Positions 39,645-39,982 of a stretch of 64,000 nt of DNA are shown piece after piece; the first letter of the stretch is position 1; every line of letters starts with the position of its first letter. Source of the DNA: Rickettsiales bacterium (GTDB taxonomy: Bacteria > Pseudomonadota > Alphaproteobacteria > Rickettsiales > UBA1997). A program made the position numbers and the translations under genes. The stretch spans positions 13,959-77,958 of the forward strand of contig JAGWYT010000001.1 in assembly GCA_018969185.1 (NCBI GenBank). The letters are read 5' to 3'. The notes under the pieces are model-generated. The model had not been told where the DNA came from. It did no database searches and saw only the letters and a list, made by a program, of their open reading frames with translations.

Positions 39645-39651
39645 TGTCGGA

Positions 39652-39891
39652 GTGTCGGGCTTTGACCCCTTTAAGTATTGTAAACCGCAAGATTGGAATA
39701 GCGGAGATAAAATTTATATTATGGATGTGATAACAGCACTTCCAGCACAAAAAGAATTTTTCAAGCAGTTACAAGAAAGTAAATTTAAAGATCAAAAAGT
39801 TCATATTTTGAAGCCAAAAATTGATGATAAGGGAAATATTAATGGGTTTGTGAAACAGTTGCTTACAGAGGTTTTGAATGAAAATAAATAA
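39652..39891 (+). pseudogene. Truncated relic of an RTX-toxin-activating lysine acyltransferase (HlyC/RtxC family, C-terminal half only)
   Basis: 79 aa from a GTG start. PQDWNSGDKIYIMDVITALPAQKEFFKQLQESKFKDQKVHILKP parallels the HlyC segment [20 protein letters not shown]...LYKYMRKKFPDELFRAIRV (recalled from memory, not aligned computationally). The N-terminal half is missing. The first 8 codons are encoded by the repeat terminus gtgtcgggctttgacccctttaag. Confidence 0.55.
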
Positions 39892-39982
39892 TCTCTTTTG
39901 TCATGCCGTCTTTAGGATGGCATCTAATTTTTAACCAAAAAAATTATAAGAAATAATAACTCTAAAATTTAATTAAGAATTT

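Follow-up and report, generated by a model that had tools for sequence, protein, structure and literature searches.

A 5'-truncated HlyC-family acyltransferase gene joined to a REP element upstream of a giant RTX gene in a Rickettsiales bacterium

Upstream of a giant RTX gene, in a 64,000-nucleotide stretch of a Rickettsiales bacterium genome (assembly GCA_018969185.1, contig JAGWYT010000001.1, positions 13,959 to 77,958; hereafter the window, 32.7% G+C), lies an open reading frame (ORF) of 79 codons whose product is identical to the NCBI nr protein P0001, 'toxin-activating lysine-acyltransferase [Rickettsiales bacterium]'. Can so short a product be a toxin-activating acyltransferase (TAAT) of the HlyC family and, if not, what has become of the gene? 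Comparison with intact orthologs indicates that the ORF is very probably a non-functional 3' remnant of a HlyC/TAAT-family gene, the 5' end of which was replaced by a segment ended by a repetitive extragenic palindromic (REP) element. The family assignment of the fragment is already public and the truncation of the gene is absent from the public record. The case is one of ordinary gene decay and not of a new system: a TAAT pseudogene at a rearrangement associated with REP elements and REP-associated tyrosine transposases (RAYT). The relic comprises:

39652-39891, plus strand: 79-aa ORF, 5'-truncated hlyC/TAAT-family remnant (GTG start, Pfam match)
39679-39888, plus strand: 70 codons with homology to P0002, the intact HlyC-family ortholog, over its residues 109-178 (tblastn, 80% identity; blastn to contigs L001 and L047 from 39681; alignments)
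39903-39923, plus strand: terminator-like hairpin plus T-run just 3' of the relic, within a stretch of about 48 nt not present in the L001 intergenic region

The sole Pfam match of the 79-aa product was PF02794 (HlyC, RTX toxin acyltransferase family), with E = 2.7e-7 and 31 bits, above the gathering cut-off of 25 bits. Of the 127 profile positions the match spans only 70-118, the C-terminal part, with ORF residues 11-59. Searched exhaustively with HMMER, 1.84 billion representative proteins gave ten hits to the ORF. In the best one, P0002 (182 aa), residues 109-178 show 80% identity with ORF residues 10-79; four more full-length relatives of 177-217 aa are 41-45% identical. P0002 is itself a PF02794 protein, encoded on contig L001, and P0012, 96% identical to P0002, is encoded on L047 and L048. 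P0009, situated near a contig end, and P0010, without a record, do not count as independent truncations. The significant profile match and the identity to the P0002 C-terminus are in agreement with the preliminary description of this locus, which had recognized in the ORF a C-terminal HlyC-family relic. With the fragment as query, a word-indexed protein search returned the fragment alone and phmmer found no TAAT match in PDB, the relationship with ApxC being seen by profile only; no NCBIfam model matches either the fragment or the intact ortholog.

In the alignment of the full-length family, His54 and Asp124 (P0002 numbering) are invariant and 70 residues apart. The residues of E. coli HlyC are His23 and Asp93. 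The catalytic dyad of CdiC, His37/Asp107, has the same 70-residue spacing, and the catalytic histidine of ApxC is His24 (PMC8510554). D25 of the ORF, within the sequence YIMDVIT, is the aligned counterpart of the invariant D124 in P0002: the catalytic aspartate is retained, and the catalytic histidine (H54 of P0002) falls in the deleted part of the gene. A tblastn search of all 64 kb in six frames with P0002 detected only 39679-39888, the next best match (E = 0.72) being unrelated. Residues 1-108 are therefore unmatched in the window, and the earlier statement that the N-terminal half with the catalytic histidine is absent proved correct. The product counts 79 aa, 70 of them homologous, versus about 150-220 aa for a complete TAAT, and it would not be an active acyltransferase because residues 1-108, which include the catalytic histidine and about 60% of the single-domain fold, are gone. 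Lysine acylation dependent on acyl-acyl carrier protein (acyl-ACP) is predicted to be absent from the fragment, which is presumably inert. Without an active acyltransferase, the downstream RTX protein, probably the former substrate, would no longer be acylated from this locus, and a loss of acylation here is plausible.

The start of the ORF was found to belong to a repeat:

39641-39672, plus strand: REP element TTAGTGTCGGAGTGTCGGGCTTTGACCCCTTT, 32-33 nt (window repeats, shuffles, metagenome copies)
39673-39680, plus strand: junction interval from the REP tail to the hlyC homology, most of codons 8-10; the breakpoint is no more precise than this
25322-25353, minus strand, and 25369-25400, plus strand: two diverged REP copies head to head, an 'empty' pair enclosing 15 nt and no transposase

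The REP head, TTAG, holds the stop codon of an antitoxin-like gene, and the second GTGTCGGG of the element provides the ORF with its GTG start and codons 1-7, so that GTG TCG GGC TTT GAC CCC TTT (39652-39672) is REP sequence; clear homology to hlyC sets in at about 39681. Because the REP by chance offers an in-frame GTG, gene callers predict a protein of 79 aa. An in-frame TGA lies 5' of this codon (39634-36), and inspection of the sequence upstream of it revealed no Shine-Dalgarno motif at usable spacing, a GGAG overlapping the start codon itself. The proposal that the first eight codons derive from a repeat terminus was thus right as to their origin, seven to eight codons being REP-derived, and can be refined as to the repeat, which is a REP element of a RAYT (Y1 transposase) family and not the terminus of an insertion sequence.

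This identification is based on the copies of the repeat in the window and elsewhere. The 19-mer TGTCGRGCTTTGACCCCTT is present in two window copies versus none expected, and the longer unit TTAGTGTCGGAGTGTCGGGCTTTGACCCCTTT in three copies in the 64-kb window versus 0-1 hits in 20 shuffles. The 17-mer at window positions 39643-39659 recurs without mismatch in L001, between unrelated flanks. A metagenome scan with the 26-nt pattern GTGTCGGAGTGTCGGGMYTTGAMMCC, for which there is essentially no chance expectation, detected five independent AT-rich contigs of 32-37% G+C. The unit is about 33 nt long, TTAGTGTCGGAGTGTCGGGATTTGACACCTTTT (also written TTAGTGTCGGAGTGTCGGGMYTTGACMCC), and occurs as a tandem duplicate in L043-45, where inverted REP copies flank a Y1_Tnp/RAYT-like gene. 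In L043, two reverse copies lie upstream of this 323-aa gene and one forward copy at its 3' end, the TAG stop of the gene being in the repeat head. The product matched Y1_Tnp (PF01797, E = 9e-14), and its best NCBIfam model was "REP-associated tyrosine transposase" (E = 2.3e-16), far ahead of IS200; its score with REP_Tyr_transpos, 60 bits, is below the 80-bit cut-off. The transposase (L043:6114-7085) is unusually long, and its C-terminal ~90 residues are faintly like the DnaA C-terminal DNA-binding domain (E = 0.0096). In L001, a 52-aa ORF before the REP corresponds to transposase residues 269-321 (51% identity, E = 2e-11) and is a RAYT C-terminal scrap; L042 contains an inverted repeat pair around transposase scraps. 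A copy of the L043 type folds into a hairpin of 7 bp (-5.8 kcal/mol, z = -3.1). The empty pair of the window (25322-25400) precedes a TRL-like lipoprotein gene (24898-25209, minus strand) by about 110 nt.

Compared with described REP elements, RAYTs and REPtrons (PMC2817692, PMC3116915, PMC3479197), the family has in common its length of ~33 nt, its extragenic position and a GC-rich hairpin set in an AT-rich genome; a single Y1-transposase gene is bounded by inverted copies (L043-45), and degraded and 'empty' pairs occur (L042; window 25322-25400). It differs in its head, TTAG versus GTAG in enterobacterial REPs, in the 8-nt direct duplication contained in the unit (GTGTCGGA GTGTCGGG) and in a long transposase (323 aa) with a weak DnaA-C-like tail and a sub-cut-off RAYT score (60 versus 80 bits). 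Since the repeat flanks a Y1 transposase, its interpretation as an integron attC or as a Tn3-type inverted repeat (GGGG...TAAG) was dropped, and Rfam and tRNA scans of the window found no known RNA or tRNA-derived att site. The 16-mer GTGTCGGAGTGTCGGG gave 12 hits in viral contigs, mostly GC-rich, with none in related AT-rich sequence and no flank similarity, and was put down to chance.

What the locus looked like before the truncation can be read from L047, where the order is response regulator, 211 bp, intact hlyC, orf323 and RTX gene. The window is colinear with L047 and L048 to the left and right of the replaced stretch, and the genes of the window that bound it are:

37601-38776, plus strand: response-regulator gene, the left syntenic anchor; in L047 the intact hlyC lies 211 bp after it
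39983-40969, plus strand: predicted membrane protein of 328 aa (orf328) without family match, conserved 3' of the intact hlyC in L001 and L047
40982-47962, plus strand: 2326-aa RTX exoprotein, the presumed former acyltransferase substrate (Pfam, synteny)

The colinear blocks are:

L047 1089-3015, window 9955-11871: hybrid response regulator/kinase
L047 3730-7202, window 30296-33796: kinase and methyltransferase
L047 7883-8585, window 35765-36470: second kinase
L047 8656-9261, window 37646-38251: response regulator
L047 10429-11401, window 39681-40689: 3' part of hlyC plus orf328, 77% identity
L047 11684-11777, window 40962-41056: start of the gene after orf328, 88% identity

In L001 and L047, the gene after the intact hlyC is the ortholog of orf328 (67% aa identity), and the gene following it starts like the window RTX gene (88% nt identity); from its position 692 onward, L001 is 97% identical to L047. 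In L047, the regulator gene ends at 9789 and hlyC is called from 10001, the ATG of P0002 lying ~100 nt inside this call. In the window, the regulator stop (38776) and the point where hlyC homology resumes (about 39679-39681) have 0.9 kb of unrelated DNA between them. The relic had been placed ~1.1 kb upstream of the RTX gene, and the distance to the RTX start (40982) is indeed 1.09 kb; the gap is filled by orf328, which had gone unmentioned.

Other differences between the two loci were observed along the same gene row. The hybrid regulator and the first sensor kinase adjoin in L047, so the block that separates them in the window (12230-29700) is an insertion with respect to that contig; it encodes a 3696-aa two-partner-secretion (TPS)/filamentous-haemagglutinin exoprotein (TPS domain, E = 1.5e-38) and, besides, a series of small genes. 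The second kinase and the response regulator, neighbours in L047, are set apart in the window by a Gp49/HigB-like toxin and HI1420-type antidote pair (36934-37579). Counting the BrnT/BrnA-like pair described below, the conserved gene row contains two toxin-antitoxin insertions. The sensor-kinase paralogs at 29764-32337 and 33808-36477 share blocks of 71-81% identical DNA (repeat families D6, D7, D9 and D11), and the second kinase has only 448 aa in L047. A FadL/Toluene_X outer-membrane gene (48086-49390) follows the window RTX gene directly, and the L047 homolog (L047:1-1001, 70% nt identity) adjoins the hybrid response regulator, which points either to rearrangement or to paralogs.

The DNA that took the place of the hlyC 5' end, window 38777-39680, replaces the intergenic region and 324 nt of hlyC coding sequence. 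About 640 bp of original DNA were lost, namely the 211-bp intergenic region, presumably with the promoter, and the first ~108 codons. The replacing segment contains a terminator-like hairpin, a 117-nt palindromic repeat, a BrnT/BrnA-like gene pair and, at its right edge, the REP:

38867-38983, no strand assigned: unrelated palindromic repeat of the TGTCATCCTGAGC...CGAAGGATCTC family, with a second copy at 9734-9850
39094-39363, plus strand: BrnT-like toxin ORF, 89 aa (PF04365, E = 5e-5, below the gathering cut-off)
39366-39644, plus strand: CopG/BrnA-like antitoxin ORF, 92 aa (PF12441, E = 3.5e-5; NCBIfam BrnA, E = 8e-4; both sub-threshold)

The geometry of the pair is typical of type II toxin-antitoxin systems, and its profile matches are weak: 23.9 bits versus 34.5 for BrnT, 24.9 versus 28 for CopG_antitoxin and 19.6 versus 60 for NCBIfam BrnA. 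The stop codon of the antitoxin-like ORF is the one that sits in the REP head. Several small repeats were noted besides. The two copies of the ~117-nt palindromic family (TGTCATCCTGAGC...GGCGAAGGATCTC), 9734-9850 and 38867-38983, are 81% identical and each internally palindromic; a third palindromic intergenic family (GCGAAGTCGAAACCAAG...CTTGGTTTCGAC) has three window copies (8551-8612, 52691-52742 and 60557-60624). The motif CCTGACCCCTTT occurs three times (0.13 expected), at 23912-24008, 24790-24810 and 38826-38837. At 23912-24005 it ends a 26-bp inverted repeat (GGGGGCAGGTTCATTATATGACATAT / ...AATGAACCTGACCCC) and may represent a small palindromic element or terminator family.

From an original order of response regulator, hlyC, orf328 and giant RTX-lipase gene, a segment of ~0.9 kb (38777-39680) would have replaced the promoter region and the first ~108 hlyC codons, fusing the REP tail to hlyC codon ~108 and the REP head to the stop of the antitoxin-like gene. 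This could have happened by insertion of the REP-ended segment with concomitant deletion of the target, or by a deletion running from a pre-existing REP into hlyC. We infer that the REP or its transposase mediated the rearrangement. In L001, a REP and a transposase scrap lie about 490 bp upstream of the intact hlyC, and L047 has no REP there, so that REP-associated rearrangements have struck the 5' side of hlyC independently in two lineages. A second relic, from a related organism, was detected in L052:950-1245 (also in L053-L055; four samples). It is a 69-aa C-terminal ORF (PF02794, E = 8e-9) between two RTX-repeat genes, with leftover hlyC sequence upstream (KNEPLAFIS...) that is broken by a stop and a frame shift. 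This 5'-deleted and frameshifted relic is independent of that of the window, and the decay of hlyC is therefore recurrent in the clade.

The relic upstream of the RTX gene had led the preliminary description to derive the RTX protein from a classical rtxC-rtxA toxin operon and to see a loss of acylation that fits a shift from cytolysin towards a lipase or adhesin type. Neither the descent nor the shift is upheld by the comparison. The RTX protein carries nonapeptide blocks (PF00353, E = 1e-76, about 20 stretches), three HCBP_related domains, one He_PIG domain and a weak N-terminal Lipase_3 match around GHSLGG. No Pfam RTX toxin N-terminal domain was found in it at E up to 10 and no hydrophobic pore-forming stretch, the maximum 19-residue Kyte-Doolittle mean being 1.18. 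Among the window ORFs scanned there are no genes for the ATP-binding cassette (ABC), membrane fusion (MFP) or outer membrane (OMP) proteins of type I secretion, and the locus does not have the rtxC-A-B-D operon structure. The same membrane ORF and the same lipase-type RTX gene follow the intact hlyC in L001 and L047. Kiloniella majae (L027) likewise has an intact HlyC-like gene in front of a giant RTX gene whose product shares the Lipase_3-like N-terminus (38% identity to residues 58-154 of the window protein). As a TAAT accompanies a lipase-headed, non-pore-forming RTX protein in L001, L047 and L027, the lipase-type architecture predates the loss of hlyC and is ancestral at the locus.

An acylated-lysine context, for which the preliminary description had proposed a check, is not recognizable in the RTX protein. 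Against PDB, CyaA (7usl_C, residues 751-1706) was aligned mainly via the RTX blocks; a tyrosine aligns at the acylated K983 of CyaA, in a low-confidence stretch of the alignment, and of the Gly-Lys dipeptides, of which the protein has only four, none lies in a similar setting. The rules by which TAATs recognize their substrates are poorly defined (PMC8510554), so that acylation may occur elsewhere.

Genes of this HlyC subfamily adjoin giant RTX and/or type I secretion genes in L002, L004/8, L015, L016, L025, L027 and L049. In L015, L022 and L027, an unrelated ORF of 229-416 aa lies between the HlyC-like gene and the giant RTX gene, the position being conserved and the sequence not; in L002 and L007, a family-less ORF is likewise found between or beside the two genes, with no mutual similarity. 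None of these ORFs (L015, L022, L027, L002, L007) shows detectable homology to orf328. The RTX protein of L015 carries a Hint-like domain.

With the known HlyC/CyaC/ApxC/RtxC enzymes (TAAT, PF02794), the relic shares the C-terminal profile similarity and the DW-SGD...D motif with the catalytic aspartate kept; it adjoins an RTX-repeat exoprotein gene, and its intact orthologs have the canonical 70-residue His/Asp spacing. It differs in having 70 of about 180 residues, no catalytic histidine and a start codon supplied by the REP. The subfamily as a whole differs in being alphaproteobacterial, with long low-complexity N-terminal extensions, and paired with giant non-cytolysin RTX proteins, often with an ORF between, and not with HlyA-type pore formers in a CABD operon. 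The Vibrio MARTX locus has the order rtxH-rtxC-rtxA and also combines a TAAT gene and a small gene without annotated function with a very large multidomain exoprotein not of HlyA type; here the order is hlyC, orf328, RTX gene, and the RTX protein is devoid of MARTX A/B/C repeats as far as Pfam shows. In class IV contact-dependent inhibition (CDI) systems, the TAAT enzyme CdiC lipidates a large secreted non-RTX protein, CdiA (PMC8510554). A non-cytolysin substrate is the likely situation for the intact orthologs of the relic as well, but the CdiC substrate is the TPS-secreted CdiA, whereas the neighbour here has the RTX repeats typical of type I secretion substrates.

Several observations weigh against an inert remnant left by a REP-associated event. 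The truncated allele is carried by one genome only, and an intact paralog may exist elsewhere in the metagenome-assembled genome (MAG): a peptide-pattern scan of a collection of genome contigs detected no relative above 57% identity, with patterns that would miss a truncated copy. An active role of the REP or of a RAYT in the event is circumstantial, for the hairpin of the window REP (39641-39672) is degraded by a stem mismatch (GACCCC for GACACC) and no better than shuffles, the window contains no RAYT or transposase homolog, and the sequences to the left of the REP in the window, in L001 and in L043 bear no relation to one another. Upstream of the BrnT-like gene, an inverted REP partner on the left was looked for and not found. 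Moreover, the frame is open for 70 codons and their dN/dS (0.17-0.19 against intact orthologs, Nei-Gojobori, at dS about 0.65) is no higher than the 0.26 measured between two intact orthologs. A truncation that is recent relative to the divergence is the simplest reading of these values, but they equally fit continued selection on the fragment. The latter would be expected of a small functional protein, which might, for instance, bind ACP or the substrate or regulate the RTX locus. An average omega of at least 0.6, which neutral evolution of the fragment from the split onwards would produce, was indeed rejected (p = 0.007), so that it was not neutral along the whole branch, and the L052-55 lineage also keeps a 69-aa C-terminal ORF. 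On the other hand, about 60% of a single-domain fold is missing, the REP-derived start codon has no ribosome-binding site at usable spacing, the upstream stop and frame shift of the L052 relic are typical of decay, survival of the 3' part is expected without selection when both deletions are 5'-sided, and seventy codons offer low statistical power. A retained function of the fragment is accordingly considered quite unlikely.

The junction itself could be thought to result from assembly, a chimeric contig having been joined at the repeat while the true genome has an intact hlyC. The source is a metagenome assembly and the breakpoint lies at a repeat with further copies in the same contig. But this repeat measures just 32-33 nt, with 6-7 mismatches between the window copies and a length below usual assembly k-mers; a chimera would have to rejoin the same locus, both flanks being syntenic with one contiguous L047 locus, and the independent L052 relic shows that such decay occurs. 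We regard an artefact as highly improbable. That the N-terminal half is encoded upstream in another frame, as a frameshift pseudogene or by a programmed shift, had been named beforehand as what would overturn the idea of a relic. It has next to no chance of being right and is refuted for the window: the six-frame search found nothing for residues 1-108, the 550 bp directly upstream are taken up by the BrnT/BrnA-like pair, and blastn with the L001 upstream region gives only the 17-nt REP match. Finally, the acyltransferase might have been CdiC-like and served the TPS exoprotein (12230-23320) or another substrate, never the RTX protein. Acylation of the non-RTX CdiA by a TAAT (PMC8510554), the occurrence in the window of a 3696-aa TPS/haemagglutinin-repeat protein and the lack of a recognizable acylated segment in the RTX protein are compatible with this view. 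However, the TPS gene is 16 kb away and missing from the L047 locus, in which hlyC, orf323 and the RTX gene adjoin, and seven other contexts of the subfamily are next to RTX-repeat and/or type I secretion genes, which makes such a substrate very unlikely. A non-functional remnant of an acyltransferase gene, with the RTX protein as presumed substrate, is the reading we retain.

Current understanding is not overturned by the relic, the REP or the locus comparison. A broader proposal, which we hold to be unlikely as a whole, would be that the intact relatives form an uncharacterised alphaproteobacterial module (TAAT, membrane ORF and giant lipase-headed RTX protein) lipidating a non-pore-forming enzyme or adhesin, and that this module is repeatedly being lost in Rickettsiales-like lineages by 5' rearrangements, REP-associated in the window, with C-terminal TAAT fragments (window, L052) perhaps still under purifying selection owing to a function that they have kept. 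For annotation, the public 79-aa 'toxin-activating lysine-acyltransferase' should be flagged as partial or as a pseudogene, lest an acylated toxin be inferred from it. The analysis also documents a REP/RAYT family in AT-rich Rickettsiales-like genomes, at a rearrangement boundary. For the family, the locus is a natural acyltransferase knock-out beside an apparently intact gene for a 2326-aa RTX-lipase, with an intact counterpart in a close relative, and the two together could serve to examine the importance of lipidation for RTX proteins that are not cytolysins.

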